Position numbers and translations under genes: made by a program | Shown here: positions 12,510 through 46,800 of the stretch, piece after piece | Layout of the letters: each line of letters opens with the position of its first letter | Position numbering within the stretch: the stretch's first letter is position 1 | NCBI GenBank assembly: GCA_044225175.1 | Contig: JBGAJA010000005.1 | Location: 17,869-81,868 of the forward strand | Source of the DNA: Candidatus Omnitrophota bacterium | GTDB lineage: Bacteria; Omnitrophota; Gorgyraeia; Zapsychrales; Fredricksoniimonadaceae | Direction: 5' to 3' | DNA: 64,000 nt | The notes under the pieces: model-generated | Told to the model about the DNA's origin: nothing | Databases searched by the model: none | What the model saw: only the letters and a program-made list of their open reading frames with translations

Positions 12510-12649
12510 AAAATGTCCTCAAAAGGGATTAAATTGTGTTGGAAACTTTTCACATAATCTAACAAATTAACCCTCCAGTCAAGGATCAATTCAGAAAAAG
12601 CCTTCAGTTGGCTATATATATAAATATAGGGTATACTTTTTCCAATTCT

Positions 12650-15600
12650 ATGAAATTCCCGTTTAAAAAGCCTTTAATCCTGTGGATTCTCTTTGCCTTT
12701 GTGGTCAATACTTTTGGGCCCTTGCCAGCTTCTGCCCAAGAGATAACACTCCCAAAGCCTGGTGAGATGGTGCATTTAAGTACAGCTGTAAACCCACCCA
12801 TCCTAAAGGGACTCAAGGTCCACCCAGATAACCCTTTTAGGTTCGATTTTATCCTGGATCAGGGGGAACAGCCCGACGCTATTTCGACTAAATTGAAGGA
12901 AGATTCCACCCGTCTAATCAAGTACTTTTTAGCCTCTTTAACGATTCCCGAAGTGGATCTTTGGGTCAACTTAAGCCCCTATGAGAAAGACAGAATCATC
13001 CCAAACAGCTTTGGCTTAACCGAGATGGGGCGCGACCTTCTAGCCCAGGATTACATGCTCAAGCAGATTACCGCCAGCTTGATCTATCCAGAAGCCGAAG
13101 TGGGAAAGAGATTCTGGAAGCGAATCTATGAGGAAGCAGCCAAAAGGTATGGAAACACCAATATTCCAGTCAACACCTTCAACAAGGTTTGGATAGTTCC
13201 TGAGAAGGCGGTTGTCTATGAGAACGCAAAGGCTGAGACAGCTTATGTGGTTGAGTCCAGGCTCAAGGTTATGCTGGAAGAAGATTACCTATCCAAAGCC
13301 AAGAATGACCTTCAATCTAAAGCCAACAGCCCGTCGCTAAATGCCTCTAATTTAGGATCTCAAATCATCCGAGAAATCGTCCTTCCAGAGCTGATCAAAG
13401 AGGTGAATGAAGGTGCCAACTTTGCCCAGCTCAGACAAGTCTACAGCAGTCTAATCTTAGCTACGTGGTACAAGAAAAAGATCAAAGACAGCATTCTATC
13501 CCAAGTCTATTCAGACAAGAATAAAGTCTCCGGAATTGATATTAATGATCCAGCCCAAAAGGACAAGATCTATCAGCAGTATATCCAAGCTTTCAAAAAG
13601 GGCGTCTACAACTACATCAAGGAAGAAATTGATCCAGCAACTCAGCAAGCTATTCCTAGGAAATATTTCTCAGGAGGAGCTAAGTTTGGCAATTTGGCTA
13701 TGACAACTACAAACCAATTTCCTCAAGTTATTCCTGCTGGTTTAGTTGCTATCCAAGCCGAAATTAAGAGTAGTAATCCAGAAGGAAAGACAAATGCGGC
13801 AATGATAGCCCCTCTAACTGCTGGAGAAAAGTTTGTATCAGAATTGGACGATAAAATTATTCTTGATGGCCAAGGGCGAATTAGGTACGCCGCTGGACAT
13901 CCTACACCAATTGTTAAACCATTGTTTACATTCCTAGCTGAGCGTCATGGTGAGACTTTTGCAAATCTTGACGAACGGGCGCAGGGAGTTGCTGATGAGA
14001 ACCATTTAAATGAATCAACGCCGCATGGATTGGATCAAGGCAGAGATTCCGCCAAAGGATTATTCCAACGAGCAGATATTCAAGAAATGATTCGAAAGAG
14101 AATTCCTATTGTTGTCCTAACGAGTGGGAAAAAGCGAACGACGCAGGCCGCAGAACCCTTTATTAGACGCGTAGAAGAAGCAGGTGGGATTATTGAATAT
14201 GCCCCAGAGGAATTGATGAAAGGCGCTTCTGAAATAAATTTTGGAGCTGTGGAAAATAAAAAACTATCTCATTTTTCTCCAGAAGAAATTGAGATTCTTA
14301 ATCAGTATAGAAAACAATTAAGTGCAACTGCCAAATTCAAAGGCGGTGAAAGTTTTTTAGAATTGTTAATCAAGATCAAGAAATGGTTAGAAGAGTTAAA
14401 TAGGCTTTATGCCGGCCGGACAGTCGTGCTATTTGGACATGGTACACAACTAAAAGCAGTTCAAACCTTGCTGGGAGATCCATTGATAGTAGATCCTTCG
14501 GGATATATTAATCGAAATGCCTACGTAATTCCTAATGGCAAGATTATTGAATTACATAGTCCAGCCATGGCTGCCCCAGCCATAAAATCTACTTTCGATG
14601 GATCAGCTCTAAAGTATAGCTCTGATTCTATAATCCAAAACGCACCAGAATTTGAAAGGGTTGATATGTTTCTTGATTGGTATAAGGCCAATCGAGAAAA
14701 ATTACCAGCCAAAGATGGTTATAGAGAATTCTTAAGTGCTTCTTATACGGCTAACGTTTTAATGCATGCAGGTAAGATCACAATAGAAAGGTTGGAAGAA
14801 TTTCAAAGAGAGGCAGGTGCTTATGAATATGGTCAAGAATCTGCTGTAATCCAGAATGCTCCGGAATTTGATGATGTAGAGAAATTCTTAAAATGGTATG
14901 ACGACAAACATGAACAACTGCGGTCTAAGGACCATCCTGAAGAATTTTTATCTAGAAGTTACACCTTTCAAGTCTTGAGACGTTGGGGAAAAATTAAGCA
15001 AAAGAAATTCCAGAGTATTTTGAGGCATATTATCTCTTATGAATACGCCCAGGAGTCTATAGTTATTAAGCATGCCCCAAAATTTGAGGACGTGGAAGCC
15101 TATCTTAAATGGTATAGAACTAATCGAGAACAATTGCCATTTAAAGATGATCCTAAGAAATTCTTAACTGCTGGTTCTGTTGTTATGGCATTGATGCATG
15201 CTGGAAAGATTGATAAAGAAAATTTTCAAGATTTTCAAAGGCATGTAGGAGCTTATGAATATGCTCAGGAATCCGAAATTATACTCAGTGCTCCAGAATT
15301 TAATGATGTAGGATATTTTTTAAAATGGTTTAGAACGAATGGAGAGAAATTAAGATCTAAAGAAAATCCTGAGATATTTATAAGTGCAAGTTATGCCGCG
15401 CTTTGTTTAATGTATGCCAGAAAGATTAAACGCGAGAAATTGGAGCATTTTCAAAGGCAGGCTGGAGCTTACGAGTATGCCCAGGAATCTGCGATTATAC
15501 AAAGTGCACCAGAATTTAATGAGATAAGCGAATTTATAAAATGGTATAGAGCAAATCGTGTGCTACTGCGCTCAAAAGAGCATCCAGAAGAATCTTTAAG

Positions 15601-18600
15601 CGGAAGTTATACGGCTCAAGTTTTAATGCATGCAGGTAAGATTCCTTCAGAAAGATTAACAAAGTTTCAGTTACATGTGGGAGCCTATCAACGCGCAATA
15701 GATGAAGAGAAAATAATTACAGCAGAAATGCAAAGAATTTGGAAAGAGTCGATTCACAAAGAACTCTCAGGGCTCCCTCGAATCAAAGCCGCCTTTAATC
15801 CGCAACTATTATTAAATAAAAGAATCTCAAAAGGTCCATCCAAACCATTAGGAGCGGAATATCGCAATCTAATCCTCACATATGCGTATGAGTATTATGG
15901 AGAAAAAGAAGAAGCTTCGATAAACCCGGCTATGGCTTCCAATCTGGGAAACGTTTCTGTAGCAGAGAGAGCTTCCTATCTTGTTTATCGATATTTATTG
16001 TTGGCTTTATATCAACTGCGTGGAAGTGGTGAATATTTGGATCGTCGTGCAATCATGGATCATTTAATGAAAAATTCAGATTATAAAAGGGAGGTTTTTA
16101 ATCCTAATTCAGGCTGGGTTGATATTAATTTTAGGAAAACTGGCATTTTAGGAGTGGGTCTTATTATTAAAATGCCAGATGAGAAGAAATTTAAGTTAAC
16201 AGAAGCCGGAATTGCTTTTATGGAACGATCTTATCGATTAACAGGTGATGCTTTCATTTTAGCTTTAAAAGATCAACAAAAACAATATGCTCAAGGTTCA
16301 ATAGATTCTAAGAGCGGGGAAGATCCTGTTGAACTGGTTAGATATCCCAAAGATTTCAATATTCTTAATAAAGTTAAACTAAAAATTGCTATTGCGGACA
16401 GCGTTGTTCAAAAGACAGTCGATTCTAAATTACAATATGTGGTTAATTTAGAAGAGGTAATTGAGAAATATTCTGAAGGATTATCGCCTAGATACTTAAT
16501 ACAAGCACAACAACTTTCTAAGTTAATAGAAAAACAACTTGTAGCCTTTGGCTTTACCAAGGCTAGAGATATGGGTCTTGATAAATCAAATTTATATAGT
16601 AGAGACCGTTCCTATAATCTTGATTTGATTGCAAATCCAAACATCATTAGAACCCAAGATGAAATAAATTTTGAACCTTATCGCAATTTTCTACTTGCTT
16701 TGCATAGGCTCAATTCTGAAGAAATAAAAGATTCCTATAGCCCTCAAGAGGTTTGGAAAAAGATTCAAGTGCTCTCGCGAGAAATGGAATTGCAAGTAGT
16801 GTTTTCTTCGGTAACTGCAAAACAACTTAAAAGTGCTTATGAATCTATGGCTCAAAGGGGTGTTTTATTAATAGAAAGAACTGAGAAAGGGTATAGGTTA
16901 AGTTCTGAAGGATTGAAATTCATGCAAGAAAATGGGAATTTGATAAAGGAAAGTTTGCTTAAGGCTCTAAAAAGACATTTGTATGATATAGAACAATACG
17001 AGTTAAGAAGGGAATGGTTAAGATTGCCGCAAGCTGGTGGGACATTGAACAATGCTCCTACAGGTGATCAAGTTTATAAACCTAAGTTATTATCTGAAGT
17101 TGAATTCAGAAGTATAGAAGAAATATTCGAAGCGTCATCGCACCCAGAAGTAGGCCAGTGGTTAACTTCTCAAGATATTGTTGCTTTTGAAGGACATCAA
17201 ATTGGCAAGGACAGAATTCTTAAAGCTTTAAAGTCTCCTTTTAGAACTAGTCTTGAGAGTATGGGATTGGCAAATACAGTTTTTTATCCTGTCAAAGTTA
17301 ATCAACCCATGTTAATTCAGAAAGATTTTGAGCAATTAATCAGCAAAAGAAAAGATGAAGGAAATTTCAATATTCTCATTTATCAAATTGGACTAGGTGA
17401 GGAAGGTTTTCTTGAAACTAGAGATATTTTTAACGCTTTAAAAAATGCGTTTCATCAAGCGGGGATATCTCAAGAAGATCAACAAAAGTGGAAAGTTACA
17501 TTTATTGGTGTTGATGTCATTAAAACTATTGTGGATGATTTTATTCAGAAATTTTCTGTAAAGACTGATTTCCAGAGCAATATTTTGACCATTAGAGCGG
17601 ATGCTTTGGTAGAGGACCAGATGAGATGGTTAGGAGAGAAGTTTAAGTCAGATTATTTGTTCTTTCGTAATGTAGCCTATGGAAATTATCGAGCGTCTAG
17701 AGGTCATTTAAAAAGCTATATCAATGTTGTAGAGACGCTTGCTATTTATCTGGGTACCAAAAATATACTTAAACATCTAAGTGTTCCAGAAACTCGTTTT
17801 GTAATTGAGCCTGCCCAAGAATTTGAAAACACCCAGAATTATGTCTTCCATGCCCCAGGAACACGCATCGTAACATTGAAACATTATGATCCCACAAAAG
17901 AATTTTTAGATCTAAACAATGTGATTAACACAGGGACAGGAATATATAAGGTATTAGATCCAGGTGCAATGGACAGAGAAGGTCTGCAATATTTTCTTGA
18001 TCATGTTACTGAATTTGAAAAGCCTGTGGCTGACCAAGCTCAAAAGGCCCCCTCTCTTTCTAGTTATTCTACTTTGAAACTTAATGATCGCAGCAATTTA
18101 TCAATGACCCTTATAGGCTCAAATCCAGGATCTCGAGCAGATTATATTAAGGTGGGGAATAGGAAAGACTATAAGTATGGATTTACTCGAGAAGAATTGC
18201 TTCAGCGTGAGGCGGCTTTGATGCAGGTGTTATCGACAGATCAAAGATATAATCAAATAAGAAAATATCTTCCAGTTTTTAAAGGTTTGGGACGTCTTGA
18301 TATTTCTGATGTACGTAATGTGATACCGCGTCTGCCTAGGCGTTCTTCAATTCCAGATGTTCCTCCGAGGTTTTTTCAAGAAGAGGATTTCTTAGGTTCA
18401 TATATGGTAACAGAGGATGCTGGTGATCCGATATATGCTATTGCCAATGAAGTTAGGGAAGGAAAACTGACCGAAGATGACTTGTTGAAAACAATGTCCT
18501 TGTTAGTTCAATCAATCTACGATTTTCATCATGCTGGGATTGCTTTTGGAGACCTCACTCCAGATGAAATTTTTATAGCACCCTCTACAGAGAAGGTGAC

Positions 18601-21100
18601 TATTATTGATTATGGTTTGGCAATGATTGATGAGGATAGAGATTTTGGTTATGAGAATCTAAAATCTTTTGGATTAGATAGATGGGAAGGTAGATCTGAT
18701 TATGGGGGTGGAGGTCCTGATTGGTTTAAGCGGGACGTAAGAACTGTGTTGACAATTTTGGATGCCATGACGCCAAATTCTAAATTTGGAAATTTTTTTA
18801 TAAGCCAGTTTAATATTGAAACAGTGCTTAAGGATTTTGACAATAATCCCTTATCTATATCAGATGTATTGTCGAAAGTTCAGGATATAGAACGTCAATG
18901 GTATGAGCATTCCAATGCGGCCATGACTGCTAAATTGCCCGTTGGAGTCGTGCAGTATTGGAGAGACTTGCCAAAACCTTGGGAATCGACTCTTGAGCGT
19001 TATCCTAGTCATCATCAAACGTTAATGGACAGAATGGATGCAATCACTAAAAGGGTTCGTAAATTTGCACAAGGAAAGGCAATTACTCTGACTGAGATTT
19101 GTTGTGGAACAGGTAAGTTGTTTGCTTCTTTAGTTCAATTGCCCGGTGTCACAAAGGCTGTTGCTATTGATATTAATGCCAAGGCTTTAGATAGTTTGAA
19201 AGATCGATTGCATGGAATTGAATCAAAAACTTCCGATATTAGCGTTTTTGAAGGTGACATCAATGGTCCGCTGGCCAAAGACATTGTGCCAAACTCCGAT
19301 GTCATTGTGATTAACGATGCATTAATGCATATGCCTGATTTAGAAAAGGTGTTGGACTTGGTTGCTGAGCGTTTGTCGGAAGGTGGTTTATTCATGGGAA
19401 GTGGTATTTCGCGTGAAGGCTTATTTAAAGAAACTCCCATTTTGGGACCTCTTTGGTATGTAGGATATCGTTTTATTCTTCCTCAATTCGAAAGGGTTGG
19501 TTTAGGAGCGCTTGCTAACAGGGTCGTGCAGTGGGAATCGCTTCGTATCCGCCTTACAGCTCAAAGTCAAAGAGAGATTAAGGAGATGCTAGGAAAAAGA
19601 TTTGATATTGAAGAGATCACTGTAAAAGGACGTCACTATCAATTTACCGTCAGAAAAAAAGATGGAAAAATAGAAGATAGCGCTCAAATATCTGAGGAAT
19701 CTGTGAAGACCCCGGAAAATATGGTAAAGGTTCCTGTCACCCAAGAGGAGTTGGTTGGTTTTATCGGGGATATTCGAACTAAGATGCAAGCTATTTACGC
19801 GCGTAGTAATGATCCAACGAACAGTTCGTATTGGCATGTTTTTGATGAGATCGTAAATACATATAAAGAAGAAGTTAATGCGTCAGACAATCAATTGAAA
19901 ATGTTTGCTGATTTATATACTGAAACGAGTTTAATAGGGCCGCTCATTCCTCGTCCCAAAGAAGCCAAACATGTGCTTTTAGCTATGGCCATGTTTTTAA
20001 TGCTTGCCAATCATAGGAAGGAAAATGTATATACGAGCGAAGTATTCAATGAATTAAGAAATCTTATTGATGACTATAACAAACAATCCTTTGTAACTTT
20101 TCCTTTCAGTTTGTCCTCGCTATTTGTAATCGCACTAACGCCATACTTCCATGATCCAGACTTATTTGTTGAGTTATGGAATAAATTAGACCAACTTCCA
20201 GATGATATTAGTCCACAAGCAAAATTTTTATCTATGTTTTCGGTCTCTGCTCATTTAGGAGTAGTTCGTGTTGATGGAGACGATGATTTTAAGATAATTT
20301 ATCAAAAGATCGAGGGAATTTTGGCTGACAAATCACATCCCGATCAAATTCCAGACTCTTTAAAGAGAGTTCTATTAAACTCTATTGCTAAAGTTTTGCC
20401 TTCCATTTATCACCCTAATCATAAGGACGTTTATTCAGGCTTTCATCGTATGATTGGATGGTCATCTGGTTTTCGAGAGAAATTTTTAAATTTACTTACA
20501 AAGCATAAAGATTTGATCTGTGATATTTATTATGAATATTTTTCAAATTCTGATACTACGGATGATCCTATTCTGGCAGGGCTCGGCTTTAGTTTTTATT
20601 TAAAAGCAGAAAAAGAGTTATTGAGTAAAGTTTTGCGAGACAAAATACTTCAAATTACTGGATCACAACAATTACCACCGCTTAACGTATTAATTTCTGA
20701 TAGCCGTTTCCATGAAATATTAAAGGAAAGTCCTTTATACTCCAGATTAAAAGCTAATTTTTTTATTAAATATCTGCGACAATTTGTCGAGCTGAAAGAA
20801 GATAGTCCAACAGCTGTCGGTATTGAAGATCAACAATCAGTAAGCCCACAGCCTGGTTCCAGCCCAGCCATGGCGGTACGGACGGAAGCAAAGCAAGGGG
20901 GGGTTGATTTTACGGCAAATAAAACTCCTTTAGAGGTTCAAAATGTAGGAGGCGACATTCAATTTCATATTGATCTTGCCATGATGAAACAATTGCAAGC
21001 TGCTCCGGGGTTTTATCCTGTCATTATGAATATAACCCCGCTAAAAGATTTAAAGGTATTTTTAGACGTAGAGACGACCGGCCGGTCGTCTCTACAATAA
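12650..21100 (+). CDS. Giant secreted multidomain protein, paralog 1 of a 3-member family. Domains: conserved N-module, histidine-phosphatase-like, five tandem ~72-aa repeats, protein-kinase-like, SAM-methyltransferase
   Basis: Single ORF of about 2816 aa counted from the signal peptide MKFPFKKPLILWILFAFVVNTFGPLPASAQE. The ORF track start at 12608 is probably upstream of the real start. The N-terminal 340 aa are paralogous to 26159.. and 42980.. and the C-terminal 60 aa are paralogous to the C-termini of the other two. Motifs: LAERHGETFAN (RHGE...N) and LFGHGTQ; HAGIAFGDLTPDEIF...IIDYGLA; LTEICCGTGK...VIVINDALMH...GGLFMG. Confidence 0.8.
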   Translation: MKFPFKKPLILWILFAFVVNTFGPLPASAQEITLPKPGEMVHLSTAVNPPILKGLKVHPDNPFRFDFILDQGEQPDAISTKLKEDSTRLIKYFLASLTIPEVDLWVNLSPYEKDRIIPNSFGLTEMGRDLLAQDYMLKQITASLIYPEAEVGKRFWKRIYEEAAKRYGNTNIPVNTFNKVWIVPEKAVVYENAKAETAYVVESRLKVMLEEDYLSKAKNDLQSKANSPSLNASNLGSQIIREIVLPELIKEVNEGANFAQLRQVYSSLILATWYKKKIKDSILSQVYSDKNKVSGIDINDPAQKDKIYQQYIQAFKKGVYNYIKEEIDPATQQAIPRKYFSGGAKFGNLAMTTTNQFPQVIPAGLVAIQAEIKSSNPEGKTNAAMIAPLTAGEKFVSELDDKIILDGQGRIRYAAGHPTPIVKPLFTFLAERHGETFANLDERAQGVADENHLNESTPHGLDQGRDSAKGLFQRADIQEMIRKRIPIVVLTSGKKRTTQAAEPFIRRVEEAGGIIEYAPEELMKGASEINFGAVENKKLSHFSPEEIEILNQYRKQLSATAKFKGGESFLELLIKIKKWLEELNRLYAGRTVVLFGHGTQLKAVQTLLGDPLIVDPSGYINRNAYVIPNGKIIELHSPAMAAPAIKSTFDGSALKYSSDSIIQNAPEFERVDMFLDWYKANREKLPAKDGYREFLSASYTANVLMHAGKITIERLEEFQREAGAYEYGQESAVIQNAPEFDDVEKFLKWYDDKHEQLRSKDHPEEFLSRSYTFQVLRRWGKIKQKKFQSILRHIISYEYAQESIVIKHAPKFEDVEAYLKWYRTNREQLPFKDDPKKFLTAGSVVMALMHAGKIDKENFQDFQRHVGAYEYAQESEIILSAPEFNDVGYFLKWFRTNGEKLRSKENPEIFISASYAALCLMYARKIKREKLEHFQRQAGAYEYAQESAIIQSAPEFNEISEFIKWYRANRVLLRSKEHPEESLSGSYTAQVLMHAGKIPSERLTKFQLHVGAYQRAIDEEKIITAEMQRIWKESIHKELSGLPRIKAAFNPQLLLNKRISKGPSKPLGAEYRNLILTYAYEYYGEKEEASINPAMASNLGNVSVAERASYLVYRYLLLALYQLRGSGEYLDRRAIMDHLMKNSDYKREVFNPNSGWVDINFRKTGILGVGLIIKMPDEKKFKLTEAGIAFMERSYRLTGDAFILALKDQQKQYAQGSIDSKSGEDPVELVRYPKDFNILNKVKLKIAIADSVVQKTVDSKLQYVVNLEEVIEKYSEGLSPRYLIQAQQLSKLIEKQLVAFGFTKARDMGLDKSNLYSRDRSYNLDLIANPNIIRTQDEINFEPYRNFLLALHRLNSEEIKDSYSPQEVWKKIQVLSREMELQVVFSSVTAKQLKSAYESMAQRGVLLIERTEKGYRLSSEGLKFMQENGNLIKESLLKALKRHLYDIEQYELRREWLRLPQAGGTLNNAPTGDQVYKPKLLSEVEFRSIEEIFEASSHPEVGQWLTSQDIVAFEGHQIGKDRILKALKSPFRTSLESMGLANTVFYPVKVNQPMLIQKDFEQLISKRKDEGNFNILIYQIGLGEEGFLETRDIFNALKNAFHQAGISQEDQQKWKVTFIGVDVIKTIVDDFIQKFSVKTDFQSNILTIRADALVEDQMRWLGEKFKSDYLFFRNVAYGNYRASRGHLKSYINVVETLAIYLGTKNILKHLSVPETRFVIEPAQEFENTQNYVFHAPGTRIVTLKHYDPTKEFLDLNNVINTGTGIYKVLDPGAMDREGLQYFLDHVTEFEKPVADQAQKAPSLSSYSTLKLNDRSNLSMTLIGSNPGSRADYIKVGNRKDYKYGFTREELLQREAALMQVLSTDQRYNQIRKYLPVFKGLGRLDISDVRNVIPRLPRRSSIPDVPPRFFQEEDFLGSYMVTEDAGDPIYAIANEVREGKLTEDDLLKTMSLLVQSIYDFHHAGIAFGDLTPDEIFIAPSTEKVTIIDYGLAMIDEDRDFGYENLKSFGLDRWEGRSDYGGGGPDWFKRDVRTVLTILDAMTPNSKFGNFFISQFNIETVLKDFDNNPLSISDVLSKVQDIERQWYEHSNAAMTAKLPVGVVQYWRDLPKPWESTLERYPSHHQTLMDRMDAITKRVRKFAQGKAITLTEICCGTGKLFASLVQLPGVTKAVAIDINAKALDSLKDRLHGIESKTSDISVFEGDINGPLAKDIVPNSDVIVINDALMHMPDLEKVLDLVAERLSEGGLFMGSGISREGLFKETPILGPLWYVGYRFILPQFERVGLGALANRVVQWESLRIRLTAQSQREIKEMLGKRFDIEEITVKGRHYQFTVRKKDGKIEDSAQISEESVKTPENMVKVPVTQEELVGFIGDIRTKMQAIYARSNDPTNSSYWHVFDEIVNTYKEEVNASDNQLKMFADLYTETSLIGPLIPRPKEAKHVLLAMAMFLMLANHRKENVYTSEVFNELRNLIDDYNKQSFVTFPFSLSSLFVIALTPYFHDPDLFVELWNKLDQLPDDISPQAKFLSMFSVSAHLGVVRVDGDDDFKIIYQKIEGILADKSHPDQIPDSLKRVLLNSIAKVLPSIYHPNHKDVYSGFHRMIGWSSGFREKFLNLLTKHKDLICDIYYEYFSNSDTTDDPILAGLGFSFYLKAEKELLSKVLRDKILQITGSQQLPPLNVLISDSRFHEILKESPLYSRLKANFFIKYLRQFVELKEDSPTAVGIEDQQSVSPQPGSSPAMAVRTEAKQGGVDFTANKTPLEVQNVGGDIQFHIDLAMMKQLQAAPGFYPVIMNITPLKDLKVFLDVETTGRSSLQ
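14630..15710 (+). repeat. Five in-frame tandem coding repeats of about 213-219 bp (~72 aa) inside giant paralog 1
   Basis: Repeating unit SAPEF(N/D)DVExFLKWY(R/D)xNxExLRSKxxPEEFLSxSYTAxVLMHAGKIxxExLxxFQRxAGAYEYAQES. Unit starts are near 14637, 14848, 15066, 15290 and 15503. Confidence 0.75.
21068..21095. repeat. 28-bp GC-rich perfect palindrome GTAGAGACGACCGGCCGGTCGTCTCTAC, copy 1; it overlaps the last codons and stop of giant paralog 1
   Basis: Perfect inverted repeat. Identical copy at 25092-25119. It encodes ...VETTGRSSLQ* and likely acts as a terminator hairpin. Confidence 0.7.
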
Positions 21101-26158: not shown

Positions 26159-29100
26159 ATGCGAAGACTAATAGTCGCTCTAATCTTGGTTTGCTTTATT
26201 ATAAGCTCTTTGATTCCTATGCCTGCCAATGCCCAGGAATTTGCTTTGCCTGTCCCTGGGACGATGATTCATCTAAGTTCCCAATACACTCCAGCCCATT
26301 TAGCTGGCCTTGTGATCCACCCCGAAGATCCATTCAAATTTGATTTTTTAATTCATCGTGGCGATCAATTCGTAGGGGATGGGCTTGCCCCATCCCAAGA
26401 AGGGCGAATGCAAGATTCGCCCCTACAAGATAAACAGGTGGTCTATTCAAAATTAATTAAATACTTCCTAGCTTCACTAACCGTCCCCGATGAAGACCAA
26501 TGGGTAAATTTATCTCCCTATGAGAAGGAGCGTATCATTAATGAGAATTTTGGTAAAACAGAGATGGGGCGAGATCTGTTGGCCCAGGACTATCTATTGA
26601 AACAGATCACCGCATCCATGATTTATCCCCAAGACAAGTTAGGAGAGAAGTTTTGGGAGAAGGTGTACAGGCAAGCATGGGAGAAGTACAAGACAACCAA
26701 TATCCCAGTAAATACGTTTAATAAAGTATGGATAGTTCCCGATGAAGCAGCCGTGTACGAATCAGGGAATACAGTGTATGTGTTAAAGAACCATTTAAAA
26801 GTCATGTTAGAAGAAGATTACCTAGCCAAGAAAAAGGTGTCTGACACCTTTTTGGATGGAGCAGGTGTTAAAAAGGTGTCAGACACCTTTTTGACAAGCC
26901 AGGTGATGCGGCAGATCATTTTGCCGGAGTTGGAGCGTGAAGTTAATGAAGGGAAGAACTTTGCAAATCTTAGGCAGATCTATAGTGGGATGATCTTAGC
27001 TACATGGTACAAACGAAGCCTTAAGGAATCCATTCTTTCTAAAGCCTATGCCAATAAATCGAAGGTCAAGGGGGTCAATCAGGTTGATACCAAGGCCAAT
27101 GAGGATATATATCAGCAATATTTGAAATCCTTTAAGAAGGGAGTATTTAACTACATCAAAGAGGATGTGGATAAGTATTCGAAACAGGCTATTCCTAGGA
27201 AGTATTTTTCAGGTGGAATGACCCATGGGTTAGAGAAAGTGAATGTTTATAGTTCAGATAAAGCCATGCCGGCTGAATATCGTCCTGATGCCGCGACGCT
27301 ATCAGGCCTTGATATAGCTCAGGTATTACTAAGAACGGATAGGGAAATAACAGATATAAGAAATGATGCTAGTAGAAGAATAGACATCAATTTGTCTGAA
27401 TTTATTTATAAATTCTTGTTAACTAAGTCAGGAATATACAGATTATTTAAAGGAAATCCCCCTATTCAAATGTCTAGATCATGGAACATCAAAAGAGAAA
27501 AGAAGAGTGAAGATCAAGAATTGCCAGACCGTAGTTATTATGAGCAATTGAATGATGAAAATGATGCTAAATCTTTTGATGAATTGATGGCGCAGCTATT
27601 GCCTCAAGTCCTAAATAATAAGATTCCAGGCATTCTTTATAAGCCCAATCAAGCAGGAAATGGGCGAGGAATATTCTTTATTGAGAGAAATTCAGAGGGT
27701 GGTTTAACAGTAACAATGCTTTCAAGACCAAAAAGACAAGGAGAGTTGTCTCCAGAGGAACTTACTCAGATTCTTAGTCCTGGTATAGAAGTCCGAACAA
27801 GTTTAGAAGAAGAAATCATGCAGTTTGATCTTCCAAAGACTATGGGTGAGAATCGTCACAGAGAGATTTTAAAGAATTTGTGGAGTTATTTATCGACAAG
27901 AGAAGGAGCTTATGATTCTGGCATCATTCAAGTGATGGAGTCTTTTGTAAAGGTTTCCAACCCGCAGGAACACAAGCGTCGTGCCTTTGATACTAGGTTT
28001 GTATTTCATGGAAATTTATCTTCTGGACGTATTAAATTTATTTCTAATGAATCAATTGGAAGGGTAGGTTCTTCGTCATACTTTTCTAATTTGGGTGGTA
28101 GTCCCAATCTTTCAGATCATCCTTATGGATTTAAAGGGGAATCAAGGCCGTATTGGTATAATAGCCAGGATATGTTTAAGCCTGTATTTGATGCTTTTCC
28201 AGAGTTGTTTGATTCTTTTAAGAATGCAAAGGCTTCTGAGGAGAAAAGAAAATTTATTGCTGACACCTACAAAAGACTTGAGGAACAATTTAGATACTTA
28301 ACCGAACGATTAAAATCCACTGGAGCTAATTTAGATTTAATGGTGGATGGACAATTTGACTTAATGTGGAAGAAACCCTTTAAAGTCGGGGATTTTCCTG
28401 AGCCGATTTTGGTTGAATCATGGATCAATCTATTAGATCCAGGAAAAGATTTGTCTGGAATTAAGTTTCAATTAGAAGCGGATAAAGATCATGCTATGGT
28501 GATTGCTGTTGGTCAAAAAGAGAAGTTTATACTTCCTCATGGGGTATCGTGGATCAAAATAGGAGAAGTTCCTATTGAAGTCACTTGCAGAGCTAGTGAG
28601 ATTTATTTGAATGCCTATAGGATTGGCTGGCATGGCCCTATTTTAAAAGATGGTTCAATCGATTTGAATGATTTAACTAATACACAAGTGCCTATTGTGG
28701 TTAATAGGTTGCCAGGTAATACCAATATATTAATTATAGAAAATAAATCGTACGAACCTTTAGGAGTTATTCCAAATTATTCAGAAGAATCATTAGGAGT
28801 TAAAAGGCATGGATTGGCTTTGTTTAAGGATCAATCATCTATTTTGTTGTTTAAGAAAGGGCGAGAACAAGATTTTATAATCATGGGGGATTACTTTAAA
28901 GTCAAATTCTCTCAAGAGGGCATTTATTTCTCATCGATGGCATTTGGAATCGAAGATGATTTTATAAAACAAGGAGAGTCGAAGGATTATGACTTGAGAA
29001 ATGGGACAGCTTTTACACTTGAAGTTTCATCTCATGATCCTCGCCGCATCATTATTAGAAATAAACGTACCATCCCATTATATATTTCCAATATTCCGGG

Positions 29101-32100
29101 TATTGAAGATATGTCTCATATTAAAGGTAAAAATATTTTCACATTTCAAAGAACAGAACAACGGAAGCCAATTAAGATCAATGGAGTTCCTTTTACCATA
29201 GAACGTACGGGTGATTCTTTTTTTGTAAGATCCCCATTCTATGAGGGATTCTTATCGATGCGTCAGCAAGAGTCTTTAGATGTTCGTATTCCAGATCAGC
29301 CTCAAATTAATCAAAAAGCTTTTCAGATTAGATTTTTGATTCCAAGCGGTGGGTATGACTTTGTTATTCTGAATCTGACAGAAGAATCTTTGATTATTGA
29401 GGAAGATCAAACTTCAGCTATTTGGATAGGGGATCGAAAACCTTCTCCTTTATGGAAAGATTTAGAGGAAACTTTAATTGAAGTGGAAGGCCAAAGTAAA
29501 AATGAAGTTAATAAAGCAGTGAGGCTGTTGAAAGAAAAGCCTATAACAGTGTGGAAGATAGGCGTCTATGAGGGTAGATGGACTCAAGATATTGCAAGAA
29601 GAAATGAGAATATAGGACTAATTGTAACTGAGAATTTTTCTGCACAAACTAATTCCAGGCCTGGAGACTCATTGGATGATTGGAGGCGAGGATCTTTGGA
29701 TGTTCAAATACAGCAACCTGATAATTTAGCTGTCCTTAATGGTTCAGTTCGCAGTATCCTTAGTAATATGCCGGATAATTCTTTAGATACTATTATTTTT
29801 GAGAATACTGAAGCACGCAGTTTTTCTGAAGGCCAGGAAGTAGTTGTTTTAGATGGGAGAGATAAGCAAAGAACGTGGACTTTTCTAAGTAGGAATATTT
29901 CTCTCGTGTTGAGAAAATTAAAGCCTGGTGGAAAATTGATTATTGCGCCGTACCATTTATCTAATACTTATCAAATAGCAAATAATGAATTCTACAAAAC
30001 TTGGCAGAAAAGTGAGACTCCAGGAATAGATTTCACGACAAGAAAATCATATTGGGCTTATTCTAAGGACATTGCAGTTCTGATTAAAGACAGTGCAATG
30101 AAAGCGGATCACAAGGAAGATATTATTTCAGTTGAACAGTTCAGAAAAATTATGAGCAGGGCTATTTTAAGAGCAGACCCTAATATTTTTGAATTTAAAG
30201 ATAGAACGGCATCTTTTTTTAATGCTTTTTTAAATGCATTATTAGAGCATGACATTAAGAAGGGAAGATCAGCTTCAGAGGTAATGATGGCTATATCGCA
30301 AATCATTGATTTGTTGCAGCCAGAGAACTTTACTAAACATACATTTACCAATCCTGAAGCATATGTGCGTGAATGGGTGGAGGATTATGCTCCTTATTTT
30401 AAAGAGGATAAAACTTTTGAGAAATCAGCTATTGTGGCCCTTAAGTATTTATTGAAAAATCCAGAACATCAAAGTACAGAAGCTGATGATGAGGGATTTG
30501 AAGATACGGTGGACCCAGACCAAAATGTTTCTTTCAATGATCAAGGAGCTAAATTGCTTAAAATGGCTTTTAATGCTTTGCAGTTATATGTAAAGGCTAA
30601 GGCCAAGATGAAAGCTATTTTACAAAGATTCCCAAAAATTGAATCGATGGAATTGTATCCGAATCATACCTCAACAATTTTTCTGGATAAAAAGTACCCA
30701 CAGGCACAAATCTTTTATTTAAATGGGATGGAAGCTTCTGTACAACGAGATGATCAGGGAGATGTTTTTTTATCGATTCCTGAAATTGAGATTCAATCTA
30801 AAGAAATTGAACAAGGAGGATTTGTTTCTTACGATATAAGAGGAGTCAGTGTTGGGATCCAATTATCAGATTATACAGATCGTGTGGTTATTAAGAACTT
30901 GAACCCAATGGTACCCATGGTTCTAGCCATCGAGAATTTACCAGCCATTGTTGAAAGTTCTTCTATATTTAATGAAGAGCAAAATTCTTTGAATGACTCT
31001 TTTTTTCTTCCCTGGCGTGAGAGAGCCACACTTTCTTTTTTCGGAAATGAAAATACTGAGAAAGAATTTCAGTTAAATGGAAGGGTTTTTAAGGTCCTTT
31101 TCTTATCTAAAGGTAGTATTTTATTACAGCATGGCAGCTCAAATGAATTTATTCCCTCGAAAAGTTCCAAGATAATTTCTCTGCCTGCAGATGAAAAGAG
31201 TAATAATTCTCTTAATGTCAGCATATCATCTCCTCAAGGACAGTTAAAATTGACAATTGTGAATCTAAGTGAGCAATCCTTAAAAATTGAAAATAAATTT
31301 AATCGCTTAGCGGACGTGGCGCGAGATTCTGAGAAGATCGTTATTAGTACAATTGAGCAAGTAGAAGAAATTGCCAAATCTTATGTGCAAGATACTCGTT
31401 TAGGAGAACAAATGGTTAAGGACACGAATTTGGGGGAAGATGATTTGATTGTAGTTTTGACATTTATTCTTCTTGATAAATATTTAAATGAGAAAAATAT
31501 AGATTTAAATATTGAAGATCCCCAGCAATTAACTCGGGAAGTCAAGAAGCGCGCCAAGAATATTAAATGGCGAGAGTACCTCGTTAAGAAATTTAATCTT
31601 AAGCAGAGAGGTCAAAGAAATAATAGGGGTAGTAGCAGGAATGAAATTATAAATCCTTCTTATGAAACTTCAGATTCTCTAAATACCTCAGGGCAGATTA
31701 CACATGGTGAGTTTTATGCGCGATTACAGATGTTAAAAGAGGGGTTAAGAGCATTAATAGATTCTTGGGAAACACGACAGGAATACTCGGACACTTTTAG
31801 AGAAGAAAGTACTATAAAGTTCTTACTTACCACGGAAAATTTTCTTAGAGTTATTCAAACTTTAGATAATGATCGTGTCAATATTGAGAATTTAAGTCTT
31901 GAGTTTGGTTTTGAATCAGCTGGCTTTATAAATAATCTTAAGAAGTCTATTGAATCCAATGCCATACAATCGGAAGTAAGTTACATTATCAATACGATTG
32001 CTCTGATTTTAGGAATGGATAAGAAAAATCCTAATTATTTTTATACGATGACAGGGGATGAAGATGATAAATCCCTTAAAGAACTTACAATTTATAAACA

Positions 32101-32371
32101 TGCTAAGCAGATTTCTAGAATTAATGGGAGTGGAAGTCATGATGCGGCTATGGTTGCGTTGAATAAAGGAGGTATTGATTTTAATTCGTCCAATTTAAAT
32201 CTTCAAATCAAACGTGATGGCAAGGGTGTGCCATTGCCTTTTGCCCAGCAAGATATGGCCCAAATCAATAATATTGAGGGCTTTGTGCCAGTGATTCTAG
32301 AGATCAAACCTGCCGGTAACTTGCCTTTTTTTTCCGAACTTCAGGCGCAGAATAAGTTTGCGACTAGATAG
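26159..32371 (+). CDS. Giant secreted multidomain protein, paralog 2. Conserved N- and C-modules with a central region containing a TTL/ATP-grasp-like motif and a possible methyltransferase-like motif
   Basis: 2070 aa. Signal peptide MRRLIVALILVCFIISSLIPMPANAQE. N-module about 60% identical to paralogs 1 and 3. KPNQAGNGRGIFFIE resembles the tubulin-tyrosine-ligase/ATP-grasp P-loop. LKPGGKLIIAPY resembles MTase motif III. The C-terminal GGIDFNSSNLNLQIKRDGKGVPLP... is shared with paralog 3. Confidence 0.8.
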   Translation: MRRLIVALILVCFIISSLIPMPANAQEFALPVPGTMIHLSSQYTPAHLAGLVIHPEDPFKFDFLIHRGDQFVGDGLAPSQEGRMQDSPLQDKQVVYSKLIKYFLASLTVPDEDQWVNLSPYEKERIINENFGKTEMGRDLLAQDYLLKQITASMIYPQDKLGEKFWEKVYRQAWEKYKTTNIPVNTFNKVWIVPDEAAVYESGNTVYVLKNHLKVMLEEDYLAKKKVSDTFLDGAGVKKVSDTFLTSQVMRQIILPELEREVNEGKNFANLRQIYSGMILATWYKRSLKESILSKAYANKSKVKGVNQVDTKANEDIYQQYLKSFKKGVFNYIKEDVDKYSKQAIPRKYFSGGMTHGLEKVNVYSSDKAMPAEYRPDAATLSGLDIAQVLLRTDREITDIRNDASRRIDINLSEFIYKFLLTKSGIYRLFKGNPPIQMSRSWNIKREKKSEDQELPDRSYYEQLNDENDAKSFDELMAQLLPQVLNNKIPGILYKPNQAGNGRGIFFIERNSEGGLTVTMLSRPKRQGELSPEELTQILSPGIEVRTSLEEEIMQFDLPKTMGENRHREILKNLWSYLSTREGAYDSGIIQVMESFVKVSNPQEHKRRAFDTRFVFHGNLSSGRIKFISNESIGRVGSSSYFSNLGGSPNLSDHPYGFKGESRPYWYNSQDMFKPVFDAFPELFDSFKNAKASEEKRKFIADTYKRLEEQFRYLTERLKSTGANLDLMVDGQFDLMWKKPFKVGDFPEPILVESWINLLDPGKDLSGIKFQLEADKDHAMVIAVGQKEKFILPHGVSWIKIGEVPIEVTCRASEIYLNAYRIGWHGPILKDGSIDLNDLTNTQVPIVVNRLPGNTNILIIENKSYEPLGVIPNYSEESLGVKRHGLALFKDQSSILLFKKGREQDFIIMGDYFKVKFSQEGIYFSSMAFGIEDDFIKQGESKDYDLRNGTAFTLEVSSHDPRRIIIRNKRTIPLYISNIPGIEDMSHIKGKNIFTFQRTEQRKPIKINGVPFTIERTGDSFFVRSPFYEGFLSMRQQESLDVRIPDQPQINQKAFQIRFLIPSGGYDFVILNLTEESLIIEEDQTSAIWIGDRKPSPLWKDLEETLIEVEGQSKNEVNKAVRLLKEKPITVWKIGVYEGRWTQDIARRNENIGLIVTENFSAQTNSRPGDSLDDWRRGSLDVQIQQPDNLAVLNGSVRSILSNMPDNSLDTIIFENTEARSFSEGQEVVVLDGRDKQRTWTFLSRNISLVLRKLKPGGKLIIAPYHLSNTYQIANNEFYKTWQKSETPGIDFTTRKSYWAYSKDIAVLIKDSAMKADHKEDIISVEQFRKIMSRAILRADPNIFEFKDRTASFFNAFLNALLEHDIKKGRSASEVMMAISQIIDLLQPENFTKHTFTNPEAYVREWVEDYAPYFKEDKTFEKSAIVALKYLLKNPEHQSTEADDEGFEDTVDPDQNVSFNDQGAKLLKMAFNALQLYVKAKAKMKAILQRFPKIESMELYPNHTSTIFLDKKYPQAQIFYLNGMEASVQRDDQGDVFLSIPEIEIQSKEIEQGGFVSYDIRGVSVGIQLSDYTDRVVIKNLNPMVPMVLAIENLPAIVESSSIFNEEQNSLNDSFFLPWRERATLSFFGNENTEKEFQLNGRVFKVLFLSKGSILLQHGSSNEFIPSKSSKIISLPADEKSNNSLNVSISSPQGQLKLTIVNLSEQSLKIENKFNRLADVARDSEKIVISTIEQVEEIAKSYVQDTRLGEQMVKDTNLGEDDLIVVLTFILLDKYLNEKNIDLNIEDPQQLTREVKKRAKNIKWREYLVKKFNLKQRGQRNNRGSSRNEIINPSYETSDSLNTSGQITHGEFYARLQMLKEGLRALIDSWETRQEYSDTFREESTIKFLLTTENFLRVIQTLDNDRVNIENLSLEFGFESAGFINNLKKSIESNAIQSEVSYIINTIALILGMDKKNPNYFYTMTGDEDDKSLKELTIYKHAKQISRINGSGSHDAAMVALNKGGIDFNSSNLNLQIKRDGKGVPLPFAQQDMAQINNIEGFVPVILEIKPAGNLPFFSELQAQNKFATR
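26831..26893 (+). repeat. Two tandem in-frame copies of the 24-bp palindromic element (AAAAAGGTGTCTGACACCTTTTTG / ...GTCAGAC...) inside giant paralog 2, encoding the duplicated peptide KKVSDTFL
   Basis: Copies at 26831-26854 and 26870-26893, separated by 15 bp. Identical to the intergenic hairpin at 9613-9636. They sit in a linker that is hypervariable among the three paralogs. Confidence 0.75.
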
Positions 32372-41551: not shown

Positions 41552-41755
41552 ATGAAAGCTGAAATTCACCCAAATTATGAAGAAACCACAATTAGCTGTG
41601 CTTGTGGAAACATTATTCATACGCGTACAACCAAGAAGAACATCCGCGTTGAAATCTGTTCCCAATGTCATCCTTTCTTCACAGGATCCAAGAAATTAGT
41701 GGATACTGCAGGCCGTATCGAGCGATTCAACAAACGTTATGCTAAAGGAAAATGA
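41552..41755 (+). CDS. rpmE: 50S ribosomal protein L31
   Basis: 67 aa. [27 protein letters not shown]...[10 protein letters not shown] zinc-ribbon L31 signature. GGAGG RBS 8 nt upstream. The N-terminal extension in the ORF track is spurious. Confidence 0.9.
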
Positions 41756-42830: not shown

Positions 42831-42979
42831 AAGATTATCACTAATCTTTATATATAAAATTTCCATAAAGTATTAATTAGCAATAGTTTAACAATAAACA
42901 GGTAAGCGTTTTCTCAAAAGCTCTTAGGAGCGATTGACAAGGCTTGCCCTGTGTTGCACACTTGTAGTAATTAATAAGT

Positions 42980-45900
42980 GTGGAGAGTAATATGAAAACC
43001 CCAAAAGCCATTTCTATTATTGTTTTAACAGCCTTCTTGACAACATCTCTCAATATTTCCGGGTATGCTAAAGACGTTTCGTTATTACCCGCTCCAGGTG
43101 TTATGGTTCACTTAAGCCCTGAATTTACTCCTGCCCATTTAAAAGGAATTGTTATTCACCCTGATAATGCTCTTAAATTCGATTTCATCATCAATAAAGG
43201 CGACAAGCCTTTAGATGAAGTGACAAAAAAGGCAGAATATACCAAACTTATTAAATATTTTTTAGCTTCCTTAGCCGTGCCTGATGACAATCAATGGGTC
43301 AATCTTTCGCCTTATGAAAAGAACCGTATTATTAAGGAAGACTTTGGAAAAACTGAAATGGGGCGAGATTTACTAGCGCAAGATTACCTACTTAAACAAA
43401 TTACAGCTTCTTTAATATACCCTCAAGACAAGTTAGGCCAGAAATTCTGGGATGAAGTTTATGCAAAAGCCCAGCAGCAATTTGGCACAACCAATATTCC
43501 AGTTAATACGTTCAATAAAGTTTGGATTGTCCCAGATGATGCTGTGATTTATGAAAAAGGTAATACAGCATATGTCATTAAGCATCATTTGAAGGTCATG
43601 CTAGAAGAGGACTATTTGTCTTTAGGAAAGCATGGTGGTATTCAGGAAAAATCGATCCGTGATTCCAATAAAGCCCATGCGATCGGTTCACAGGTCGTTC
43701 GTGAAGTTGTTTTACCTCAGCTTGAAAAGGAAGTTAATGAGGGGCAAAATTTTGCTCCTTTAAGACAGGTCTATAGCGGTATGCTCCTAGCTGCGTGGTA
43801 TAAAAGAGCTTTAAAGGAATCATTGCTTTCAAAGATCTATGCGGATAAATCCAAAATTAAGGGAATCAATCAGGACCCTAAGAACAATGAGGCTATTTAT
43901 CAGCAGTATCTCAAGGCTTTCAAAAAAGGTGTATTTAACTTTATTAAGGAAGATGTGGATAAGTATTCGAAGCAAACTATTCCAAGAAAGTACTTCTCTG
44001 GTGGAACAATTGGGGATGGTGCCATGTTTGCCAAGGTAGTGCGTATTATAAAGACCCTTGATCCGGCTCAAGCAGCCAGTTTAGCTAAATCTCTTGCAAG
44101 CGATGACTTAGCTCAAGTAATGGCTCATGAGACCCAAGATTCAGCTATGAGTGGAACAGAAGTCAATTTCTCTTGGAATAATGGAAAGAATTCATTCCAA
44201 GTAAAAAGAGGTACCATGTTAGGTGGTTATAAACTACATAATATCCTTATGAATGGTAAGCCAACTACAGTTAAGCTTGGCAATTTACAGGGAAGTATCC
44301 TTAGAATAGAAGGGGCTGAAACGTTGATTATTGGAAAAGATAAAACATCCAATCAATATGTATTTATTACGGGTGATCGTGATCCAAGTATGCCAAGGAA
44401 CACAGTGTTTTATTTTGAAGAAGGTAAGGGCTCTGCTCCGAATCTTTTAGTAAATAAGTCTGTTAGGAATGGAAATTTTGAGACGATTGCAATATTAATG
44501 CCTGCTCAAGGAGTAGTTGGTAAACAAGCATTGGATGTACAGAATTTTTCTGATCCTTCTTTGCTACTCAGTGATGAGACTGGTTCTCAAAAGTTACCAG
44601 TTGGAAAACAAATAAAAGTCTTAGATTATGCTCAATTAACCAGTAAAACTGCTGGCCAAGCCCTGTCAACATTGGATTTGCCTCCCGCTATACCTATGCC
44701 TGGTGCCACAGAAAGAACTATAAGGCAAAGAATTATAACGGATATTCATGTTGCTCACGTGTTAGATAGAATCAGGGAAAAAACAAACAGAGAGCCTGAT
44801 CCTGGTGTTTTAGATGGCTTTATAGATGTTGTACGGGAAGAGTCCAATGATATAAGGGCTATTGAATTAGCCATAGAAGCTATTTTAGGGGCGCATATAG
44901 AAGATGAATATTTGATGGATTCTTTTTTAACAGAGTTAAAGAAGATAGATTCCACTGAGAGTGCTAATAATTACATTTATTTGTTATCTGGAATGCTGAA
45001 AGACATGTCTGGTTTAGAATTAAGTATGAATGAAAAAGTTCGTAATGTGATCTTGAATCTATTCTACATTCAAGGTTTAAATAGTGCTCCAGAATTTAGA
45101 AGTCAATTTGAAAAGTGGTTAAAGAGATTTATAGAAATAGGTCGAAAGGGTAGAAGTGATGTAGAAATCGATCCTATGTGGCAGGATATCAAAGCAGAAG
45201 ATAAGGAAGTCTTTCAATCTTTGCCATACTCTATAGGATTAAGTCTCTACAAGGTTCGAATTGCTATGCAGTCAAATCTTCATATCAATGAAGCTTATAG
45301 AGATTACGAATCAACCATCAATATGGTTAATCAAGCAATTGCTCCACAGGGTGCTTCACAGAAGGTTCTTCCATCGAGCTTGGTTGTAGGAACAGAAGCG
45401 CTAATTCTCAATAGTTTTCTAACTTTAATCCCATTTGTTCTCGATTCATTAAATTTATTAATAGATGATTTTAAGAGTACAAGTGTGGATGACAAATTGA
45501 CACGTGTTAAAGATCTATTAATTAAAGTTGAATTTTTGCACGGAAAAATGATACAGGAGATTTCTAGTGAAAGTATTAATGGCGGTATGGGACTTTCTCA
45601 AAGGGGGAGGGATTTAAAAGAGCTGTTAGGAAATGTAGACGATCTGAAAGTGTTTCTTGATGAGGAAATTGCGAAAGTCGAGCTAATGTTGGGCGAAAGA
45701 GGTAATATGCATCAAATAGATCGTAATAAATATAGCGCTCAACGATTGAATCGAACATTAAGAATGGTTTTTTATTCTTTTAAGAAAAGATGGAGAGGTT
45801 TATCGTCTAAGTTAGATAGCCAAGGAATAGAAATTGAAGATATAGATAATGTATTTCGTCTTAGTTTAAAGAGACAAGAAATTGTTAATGAATTGATCCA

Positions 45901-46795: not shown

Positions 46796-46800
46796 TTTTA

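Follow-up and report, generated by a model that had tools for sequence, protein, structure and literature searches.

Organisation of the gene

We analysed a window of 64,000 nucleotides (nt) from a Candidatus Omnitrophota bacterium (GenBank assembly GCA_044225175.1, contig JBGAJA010000005.1, positions 17,869 to 81,868 of the forward strand), in which a single gene, here called paralog 1, runs from 12650 to 21100 on the + strand. According to the list of open reading frames (ORFs) and their translations, it encodes a protein of 2816 amino acids (aa) when read from an ATG. This ATG at 12650 is the likelier start, the alternative in-frame TTG at 12608 adding 14 residues to give 2830 aa, and the protein P0001, an NCBI record from a contig of 186,673 bp, is identical to the 2816-aa product. 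An exact look-up of this product in the contig index gave no match, and a neighbouring gene located the window in the Logan assemblies of SRR28480385 and SRR28480388. Residues are numbered on this version throughout, the window nucleotide being 12650 + 3 × (aa − 1). The ORF is uninterrupted over 8.45 kb in a genome of 38% GC. A first reading of the letters alone (the original prediction) had placed histidine phosphatase, protein-kinase-like and class-I S-adenosylmethionine (SAM) methyltransferase signatures in this one polypeptide, had noticed three paralogs and had proposed a secreted, unusual trifunctional effector or toxin directed at a host. The length of the protein and all three signatures in the one chain are as that reading placed them, three genes of the family are present within the window, and the observation as such is correct and well above chance.

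From the N- to the C-terminus, the protein consists of a signal peptide, an N-terminal domain, a histidine phosphatase domain, an array of 72-aa repeats, approximately 450 residues without a domain match, a domain that we named mid2, a kinase-like domain, a methyltransferase domain, approximately 400 residues without a recognisable domain, and a C-terminal module. Two winged-helix-like stretches read by eye at aa ~1100–1450 gained no profile support from the Pfam scan and are not claimed. The two ends are shared with a large family of proteins whose central parts, termed cargo below, differ from one member to the next; the arrangement of conserved ends as bookends around the cargo is real, and cargo modules are shuffled between members.

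Conserved ends of the protein

The predicted Sec signal peptide, MKFPFKKPLILWILFAFVVNTFGPLPASA followed by QE (12650..12736, + strand), was recognised by hydropathy, the KK n-region and the AxA site being read from the sequence. Its 19-residue core (aa 8–26) is the sole hydrophobic segment in the protein and is preceded by KK (K6 and K7) and followed by ASA-QE, and an N-terminal hydrophobic stretch is present in 108 of 120 family members. That the protein is secreted, as originally stated, can be reasonably inferred from a Sec-type signal peptide with no further hydrophobic segment behind it.

The signal peptide is followed by the family-defining N-terminal domain of approximately 335 aa (about aa 30–365, 12737..13744, + strand), which carries the invariant motifs LIKYFLAxL, WVNLSPYE..R, TxMGRDLLxxDYxLKQxTAS, NKVW, EVN, LRQ and RKYFSGG. 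The window has two further large ORFs with this domain, at 53–59% identity: paralog 2 (26159..32371, + strand, 2070 aa) and paralog 3 (42980..46795, + strand, 1271 aa). Both also end in the same C-terminal module and carry between these ends unrelated cargo, for which no Pfam match was obtained.

The family-defining C-terminal module, delimited by blastp and alignment A5, occupies aa 2751–2816 (20900..21097, + strand) and has approximately 55 conserved aa of the form GGVDF..K.PLEVQN...IQFHIDLAMMKQLQAAPGFYPVIMNITPL.DL.VFL. Blastp against 119 other proteins of the family placed the module at the extreme C-terminus of nearly all of them, and of 66 complete ORFs in independent genomes, 53 contained it in the same ORF, 1–25 residues before the stop. 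It had no match in Pfam or NCBIfam. A profile search with the module returned gene fragments of 58–126 aa, mostly on contigs of ~0.5–4 kb, which are too short to reveal whether the N-terminal domain is present. Comparison of the three copies in the window (20900–21097, 32170–32368 and 46600–46792) distinguished two subtypes: paralog 1 has the IKFHxDPAMLxQLQNAPGFxPVII type, and paralogs 2 and 3, as well as P0122 and P0015, have the type NLNLQIKRDGxGVPLP...EGxxPVIL.

Size, distribution and cargo of the family

With the full protein as query and a threshold of E<1e-5, more than 2000 relatives were retrieved. Among these, the best 120 measure 1550–3660 aa and share only 12–17% of the query, corresponding to the N-terminal domain, at 45–73% identity. 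A scan with one genome per species detected at least 582 loci with the family pattern, of which 80 were kept. By title, 47 of the 80 belong to Candidatus Omnitrophota or Omnitrophica, 32 to 'uncultured Planctomycetales' and one to Candidatus Elulimicrobium. The Planctomycetales titles probably reflect mislabelling inside the PVC group, and the relatives named by source in the full-protein search were all labelled Candidatus Omnitrophota or Omnitrophica. The family is multi-copy, a single metagenome-assembled genome contributing up to nine of the 80 loci, and is restricted to Omnitrophota-type genomes, with several copies in each. The 66 complete ORFs from the independent loci measure 383–3101 aa, with a median of about 1150 aa, and the family as a whole ranges from 383 to 3700 aa.

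Cargo was counted from the precomputed Pfam annotation of the best 120 members. Class-I methyltransferases were found in about 15 of them, HATPase_c in eight, His_Phos_1 in seven, SNF2/DEAD helicases in five and GNAT domains in four, followed by GGDEF, PPDK_N, ABC1 kinases and receiver domains (three members each) and MutS (two members), and about 49 members had no Pfam domain whatsoever. HAD, HEAT, WD40 and M48 domains are further cargo in the family. The combination of domains in paralog 1 was found in no other protein among 5.8 billion, and tblastn against the 80 kept loci detected neither an ortholog nor a homolog of its cargo modules. The proposal of a special trifunctional effector is therefore not supported: no ortholog shares the combination, and it is only one among the many that this very large, combinatorial family offers. 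The part of the original interpretation that sees a secreted multi-enzyme protein is reasonable. With thousands of permutations to choose from, the wording 'unusual trifunctional effector' was overstated, and the family and its conserved ends are of more interest than any one combination.

A second hydrophobic segment, at aa ~358–432 and thus right after the N-terminal domain, was observed in P0021, P0030, P0036, P0040, P0042, P0056, P0065, P0067, P0079, P0092 and P0106. Such a segment would return the cargo of these members to the cytoplasmic side, so that the family may comprise two classes of topology.

The three enzyme-like domains

The histidine phosphatase domain, of branch 1 and PhoE-like (aa 432–606, 13943..14467, + strand), was assigned using Pfam, NCBIfam, a profile search of the PDB and PHROGs. 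Its Pfam His_Phos_1 (PF00300) score of 50 bits (E=3.8e-13, aa 432–606) exceeds the cutoff of 21.7, and NCBIfam gave weak matches over the same stretch to RNase H/acid phosphatase, CobC, GpmB and PspA. A PDB search with the single sequence gave no match. When the module was aligned with seven copies from other family members (alignment A1, eight in all), the resulting profile found PhoE of G. stearothermophilus (1EBB/1H2E) as its best PDB match, at E=8e-12, and further matched the phosphoserine phosphatase PspA, CobC, glucosyl-3-phosphoglycerate phosphatase and the fructose-2,6-bisphosphatase domain. The catalytic set is complete: AERHGETFAN (RHG..N), the Arg in TSGKKRT, the Glu in ASEINFG and the His in LFGHGT were aligned by HMMER on the catalytic residues of PhoE, which we take to be R9/H10/N16, R59, E83 and H151. 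Both the motif and the superfamily proposed for this segment were thus borne out, by the above-cutoff Pfam score and by the PhoE alignment, and the residues retained suggest that the phosphatase is probably catalytically active.

The domain differs from PhoE by an insertion after the RHG motif, and whereas PhoE, PspA and CobC are free-standing cytoplasmic enzymes of ~200 aa, it is embedded in a predicted-exported protein of 2816 aa. Within the family it is 51%, 46%, 43% and 35% identical to modules of P0003, P0021, P0015 and P0010, respectively; unlike these counterparts, which lie near the C-termini of their proteins, it sits near the N-terminus. The catalytic Arg or His has been lost in two of the family copies, that of P0015 ('VAPGQ') and the second copy in P0087 ('VPHG'). 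In P0003 (2224 aa), the owner of the closest module (51%), His_Phos_1 is likewise accompanied by methyltransferase domains, but a kinase of the P-loop PRK type (PF00485) and an ARMT1/DUF89 domain take the place of the Hanks-type kinase-like domain; this could be the phosphatase, kinase and methyltransferase theme recurring with non-homologous parts, or a coincidence.

The second domain, an atypical protein-kinase-like domain (about aa 1800–2095, 18047..18934, + strand), was delimited by profile searches, an alignment (A2) and AlphaFold2. The stretch that matched Pfam Pkinase was also picked by NCBIfam (Bud32, the kinase parts of LanKC/LanL, and PrkT), by PADLOC (PD-T4-6 and MkoA) and by PHROGs (serine-threonine kinase). 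An exhaustive phmmer search with aa 1776–2111 against 1.84 billion representatives (E<1e-3) returned 21 proteins in two groups, namely very large proteins and ordinary kinases with HRDIKPDN...DFG motifs. The former include P0121 (three copies), P0122, P0123 (MDD5135852.1, labelled Candidatus Omnitrophota), P0124, P0126 and P0135, and the closest relatives of the domain are embedded in other very large proteins.

In alignment A2, the DFG-type Asp1987 (DYG) and the alphaF Asp2029 (KRD) were invariant, the alphaC Glu1854 (QREA) and the catalytic Asp1968 (FGD) nearly invariant, and the beta3 Lys1834 (DYIKV) was kept in most subfamily copies. The subfamily signature, H-G-D-L-K-P-x-E, has an acidic residue (Glu or Asp) at the position of the Mg-binding Asn. 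AlphaFold2 run on A2 produced a confident model with a bilobal kinase fold (predicted local distance difference test score, pLDDT, 80.6; predicted template-modelling score, pTM, 0.78), and the sequence evidence for a kinase-like fold is independent of this model. The domain is an atypical protein-kinase-like fold, and it may either act as an unconventional phosphotransferase or be a pseudokinase. The residues originally read in the loop (K to T, N to E and DFG to DYG) were correct, and the kinase assignment holds at the level of the fold and superfamily but not as membership of Pfam Pkinase, for which the score was 23.1 bits against a cutoff of 31.7. Compared with Hanks-type Ser/Thr kinases, Bud32/PRPK and WaaP, the domain has neither a Gly-rich loop nor an APE motif, carries Glu at the Mg-binding Asn position and scores below the Pkinase cutoff.

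Four of the very large proteins with the same kinase-like module (P0121, P0124, P0126 and P0135; 3.8–6 thousand residues) have no C-terminal module of the GGIDL type and end instead in short tails that resemble one another (...RRAVASAA, ...RSVRSSA, ...QAIGSAA and ...RIVASAA). N-termini resembling signal peptides were seen in P0124, P0126 and P0135; the start of P0121 looks truncated, and P0143, a member of its cluster, is longer at the N-terminus. The tails may mark a second bookend class of mosaic proteins.

The third domain, a class-I SAM-dependent methyltransferase (aa 2132–2301, 19043..19552, + strand), was matched in Pfam, NCBIfam, the PDB and PHROGs. Over these residues, five Pfam families scored above their cutoffs (bits/cutoff: Methyltransf_12, 37.2/30; Methyltransf_31, 34/27; Methyltransf_25, 33/27; Methyltransf_23, 30.7/27; and Methyltransf_11, 31/21.2). 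Motif I (LTEICCGTGK) and the acidic residue in AVAIDIN, both present as originally read, align to motif I of CbiT (DVGCGTG) and to AIDRN, so that the assignment to the class-I SAM methyltransferases stands. The PDB matches, CbiT and UbiG, were weak, and PHROGs gave a match to a tRNA methyltransferase at E=4.7e-9. As to the class of substrate, the matches were weak and mutually inconsistent, pointing variously to BioC, UbiG, Hen1, PrmC, CbiT and tRNA methyltransferases. Judging from its retained motifs, the methyltransferase is probably catalytically active.

Repeats and the mid2 domain

Between the phosphatase and mid2 lie five tandem 72-aa repeats (aa about 658–1017, 14621..15700, + strand), the register of which was read from the sequence. 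The register is exact, each repeat containing APEF..V..FLKWY...E.L..K..P..F and ending in GAYEYAQES; the program TRF reported a period of 216 nt for the last two copies only (73% matches). The repeats had no Pfam match, and the array is 34% identical to one in P0005.

The mid2 domain, of ~320 aa and specific to the family (aa 1465–1790, 17042..18019, + strand; alignment A4), is 29–44% identical to segments in P0002, P0004, P0006, P0007, P0009 and P0115 and to three copies in P0017, and its position varies between family members. It had no match in Pfam, and the PDB search gave only an insignificant match to ElxO (E=0.25). A guess from reading the sequence, that mid2 is a CheR-like methyltransferase, was unsupported and was dropped.

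Genomic context

The neighbours of the three paralogs include pntAB, a BioB/ThiH-like radical SAM enzyme, subunits of a 2-oxoacid:ferredoxin oxidoreductase, folD, polA, glycogen synthase, coaE, rho, and genes for tryptophan and menaquinone. The genes prfA and prmC are normally adjacent. Here, in the region 41739–47562, paralog 3 lies between prfA (release factor 1) and prmC (release factor methyltransferase), its stop located 6 bp before the start of prmC. In all three paralogs, the variable stretches that encode cargo (14001–18000, 28001–32000 and 44001–46000) have a GC content of 0.34–0.36 against a window mean of about 0.39, and this is also below that of the conserved 5' ends. Elsewhere among the metabolic genes, a 418-aa ORF (5159–6415) gave a match to a cadherin domain (E=4e-10), and its product may be another surface or adhesion protein.

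Proposed function and alternative explanations

We favour, with moderate confidence, the view that paralog 1 belongs to a large multi-copy Omnitrophota family built from a Sec signal peptide, an N-terminal domain of ~335 aa, variable cargo and a C-terminal module of ~55 aa, and that the cargo acts on or in a partner cell. In the mechanism that we propose, the protein would be exported via Sec and its signal peptide cleaved after ASA. The two conserved termini would serve one step common to all members, be it sorting, anchoring or translocation, and the cargo would supply the activity, behaving like a multi-effector toxin towards a partner cell (a host or prey), on or inside which it would act. 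A partner cell is invoked because the kinase-like and methyltransferase domains need ATP and SAM, which are unavailable outside a cytoplasm. The same cofactor argument extends to the nucleoside triphosphate (NTP)-dependent domain types of relatives, such as helicases, MutS, HATPase_c and GGDEF. On this indirect argument, the cargo would most likely act on or in the partner cell. Omnitrophota have been proposed to be host-dependent, predatory or episymbiotic (PMC10066038; bioRxiv 10.1101/2023.11.21.568195), and the 'host-targeting effector or toxin' of the original prediction fits both this lifestyle and the dependence of the exported domains on ATP and SAM.

Several points weigh against this view. 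The three paralogs are co-directional with housekeeping genes and do not lie in a secretion or mobile island, and within the window their surroundings revealed neither a secretion system nor pilZ, nor any immunity gene or processing protease. The signal peptide was called by hydropathy and by eye. A fold search with the N-terminal domain gave no recognisable fold, nor was a counterpart seen in the PDB, and its role in sorting or translocation is for that reason conjectural. Because some phosphatase copies have lost catalytic residues, cargo domains are not always enzymes, and because no ortholog keeps the combination found in paralog 1, that combination may have no selected joint function. As for the kinase-like domain, its sub-cutoff match to Pfam Pkinase (E=5.4e-5, aa 1918–1992) covers profile positions 74–146 only; the catalytic loop, FGDLTPDE, is non-canonical, with Thr1970 in place of Lys and Glu1973 in place of the Mg-binding Asn; the beta1-beta2 loop, NDRSNLS, contains no Gly and hence offers no Gly-rich ATP loop; and the five genuine kinases included in A2 may have biased the AlphaFold2 model towards a kinase fold.

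It is conceivable, if somewhat unlikely, that the protein resides in the producer's own periplasm or on its surface, where the phosphatase would scavenge phosphate or remodel the surface and the other domains would be binding modules or structural modules of a coat. Such a location would suit a signal peptide without another membrane segment, the PhoE-type phosphatases of broad specificity, which need no cofactor, and the tight spacing to housekeeping neighbours, which suggests constitutive expression. It would also suit the degenerate catalytic sites of some family copies, the kinase without a Gly-rich loop, and the proposal, cited in PMC10066038, that the giant V. archaeovorus protein has a 'coat' role. 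However, the methyltransferase retains a canonical SAM-binding motif I and exceeds the cutoffs of five Pfam families, the kinase-like subfamily keeps its Lys, Glu and two Asp residues together with the acidic residue at the Asn position, suggesting retained nucleotide or metal chemistry, and the helicase, MutS, HATPase_c and GGDEF domains of many members have no known role without NTPs. A membrane-tethered scaffold in the cytoplasm is an explanation that we consider decidedly unlikely. The N-terminal segment would then be an uncleaved anchor, or be unused for export, and the cargo would form a fused signalling or regulatory assembly of phosphatase, kinase and methyltransferase in the producer's own cytoplasm. 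Every type of cargo in the family is a typical cytoplasmic enzyme, the methyltransferase/HATPase_c/GNAT/HAD module of long Omnitrophota proteins has been read as compatible with the cytoplasmic face (bioRxiv 10.64898/2026.06.07.730766), and about a dozen members have the second hydrophobic segment after the N-terminal domain. Paralog 1 itself, however, has no such segment; K6 and K7 before the core and the AxA site after it predict an N-in/C-out orientation with cleavage; and the highly conserved N-terminal domain would have to be the only extracytoplasmic part, which is impossible without a second membrane span.

A largely non-catalytic mosaic appears improbable to us. Its captured domain fragments would evolve fast, catalyse little or nothing and persist as a source of bulk, antigenic variation or adhesion, the three signatures being leftovers. 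Such a mosaic would account for the lack of an ortholog of the same architecture and of cargo homologs in the 80 other loci, for a GC content of the cargo (0.34–0.38) below the window mean, for the roughly 49 of 120 listed members without a Pfam domain and for the loss of catalytic residues in some phosphatase copies, but not readily for an 8.45-kb ORF that is uninterrupted in a 38% GC genome, for a phosphatase with every catalytic residue and a methyltransferase with motif I, or for a kinase-like subfamily that is conserved position by position across very divergent proteins. Anti-phage systems of the Pgl type (BREX type 2) comprise the kinase PglW, the methyltransferase PglX and the phosphatase PglZ. 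The occurrence of the same three activity classes in one chain, together with the weak PADLOC matches to the defence kinases PD-T4-6 and MkoA, could be taken to indicate a fused defence protein of this kind, which we nevertheless regard as very improbable. The PADLOC matches are confined to the catalytic loop that is generic to kinases (aa 1916–2000, E>=4e-6), the phosphatase is a histidine phosphatase rather than a PglZ of the alkaline phosphatase fold, and a signal peptide and family bookends misfit a cytoplasmic defence system. This reading was rejected after the PADLOC scan, which gave no match to PglX, PglZ, PglW or any BREX model.

Whether or not the cargo reaches a partner cell, as we favour, the family bears on the question of how Omnitrophota affect their hosts. 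These bacteria are widespread, uncultured and ultra-small and are thought to live on other cells. The published giant proteins are too large for expression or modelling, and the bookended family offers similar cargo in units of 0.4–3.7 thousand residues. Its conserved N-terminal domain and C-terminal module provide handles for cataloguing members, for raising antibodies, and for reporter fusions and localisation. Were these handles a sorting or translocation device, they would represent a new route of protein delivery with a large library of candidate effectors; were the proteins to stay on the producer, the puzzle of ATP-, SAM- and NTP-dependent domains outside the cytoplasm would remain. Paralog 1 is a handy test case, with a phosphatase and a methyltransferase that both appear complete for catalysis and a kinase-like domain that is an uncharacterised variant.

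Comparison with known systems

In MARTX and polymorphic toxins, conserved termini frame interchangeable effector modules that are reshuffled between paralogs or strains. The bookended family resembles them in its conserved ends and variable central modules, and paralog 1 differs from them in having an N-terminal Sec signal. Pfam and NCBIfam revealed in it no RTX repeats, no cysteine protease or autoprocessing domain and no organisation of the type I secretion system kind, and neither an immunity gene nor a type I secretion system was found among its neighbours.

The closest published relatives are the Archaeovorins and other multi-enzyme proteins of giant size from Omnitrophota (West-Roberts et al., bioRxiv 10.1101/2023.11.21.568195; bioRxiv 10.64898/2026.06.07.730766). 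Members of the bookended family are 10–50 times smaller (383–3700 aa versus >10,000–147,000 aa). The Archaeovorins have internal transmembrane helices, whereas paralog 1 has a single N-terminal hydrophobic segment, and their genes are preceded by a locus resembling type II secretion systems or type IV pili and followed by pilZ genes, in contrast to the housekeeping neighbours observed here. The N- and C-terminal modules and the several copies per genome define the bookended family, and we found no mention of these modules in the giant-protein papers. A search of a limited library likewise yielded no description of the family beyond those papers.

The two groups nevertheless share their phylum and their general design, in which a signal peptide precedes a chain of normally cytoplasmic enzyme domains. 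Methyltransferase, HATPase_c, PPDK_N, GGDEF, HAD and HEAT domains have been described in the giant proteins (PMC10066038; bioRxiv 10.1101/2023.11.21.568195; bioRxiv 10.64898/2026.06.07.730766) and are also found among the cargo of the family of paralog 1; with GNAT domains added, these make up the overlap between Archaeovorins and the bookended family. Both groups pose the same puzzle of NTP- and SAM-dependent domains outside the cell. The bookended family may be a variant related to the published giant proteins, and may have been described before. A more far-reaching interpretation, which we offer tentatively and hold to be possible if doubtful, is that the family is a phylum-wide combinatorial platform for effector delivery, in which both end modules would mediate export and translocation of enzyme cargo, including a new kinase subfamily in which an acidic residue replaces the Mg-binding Asn, into host or prey. 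Such a platform would be analogous but unrelated to MARTX and polymorphic toxins, and may be the small modular counterpart of the Archaeovorins or the set from which they are built.

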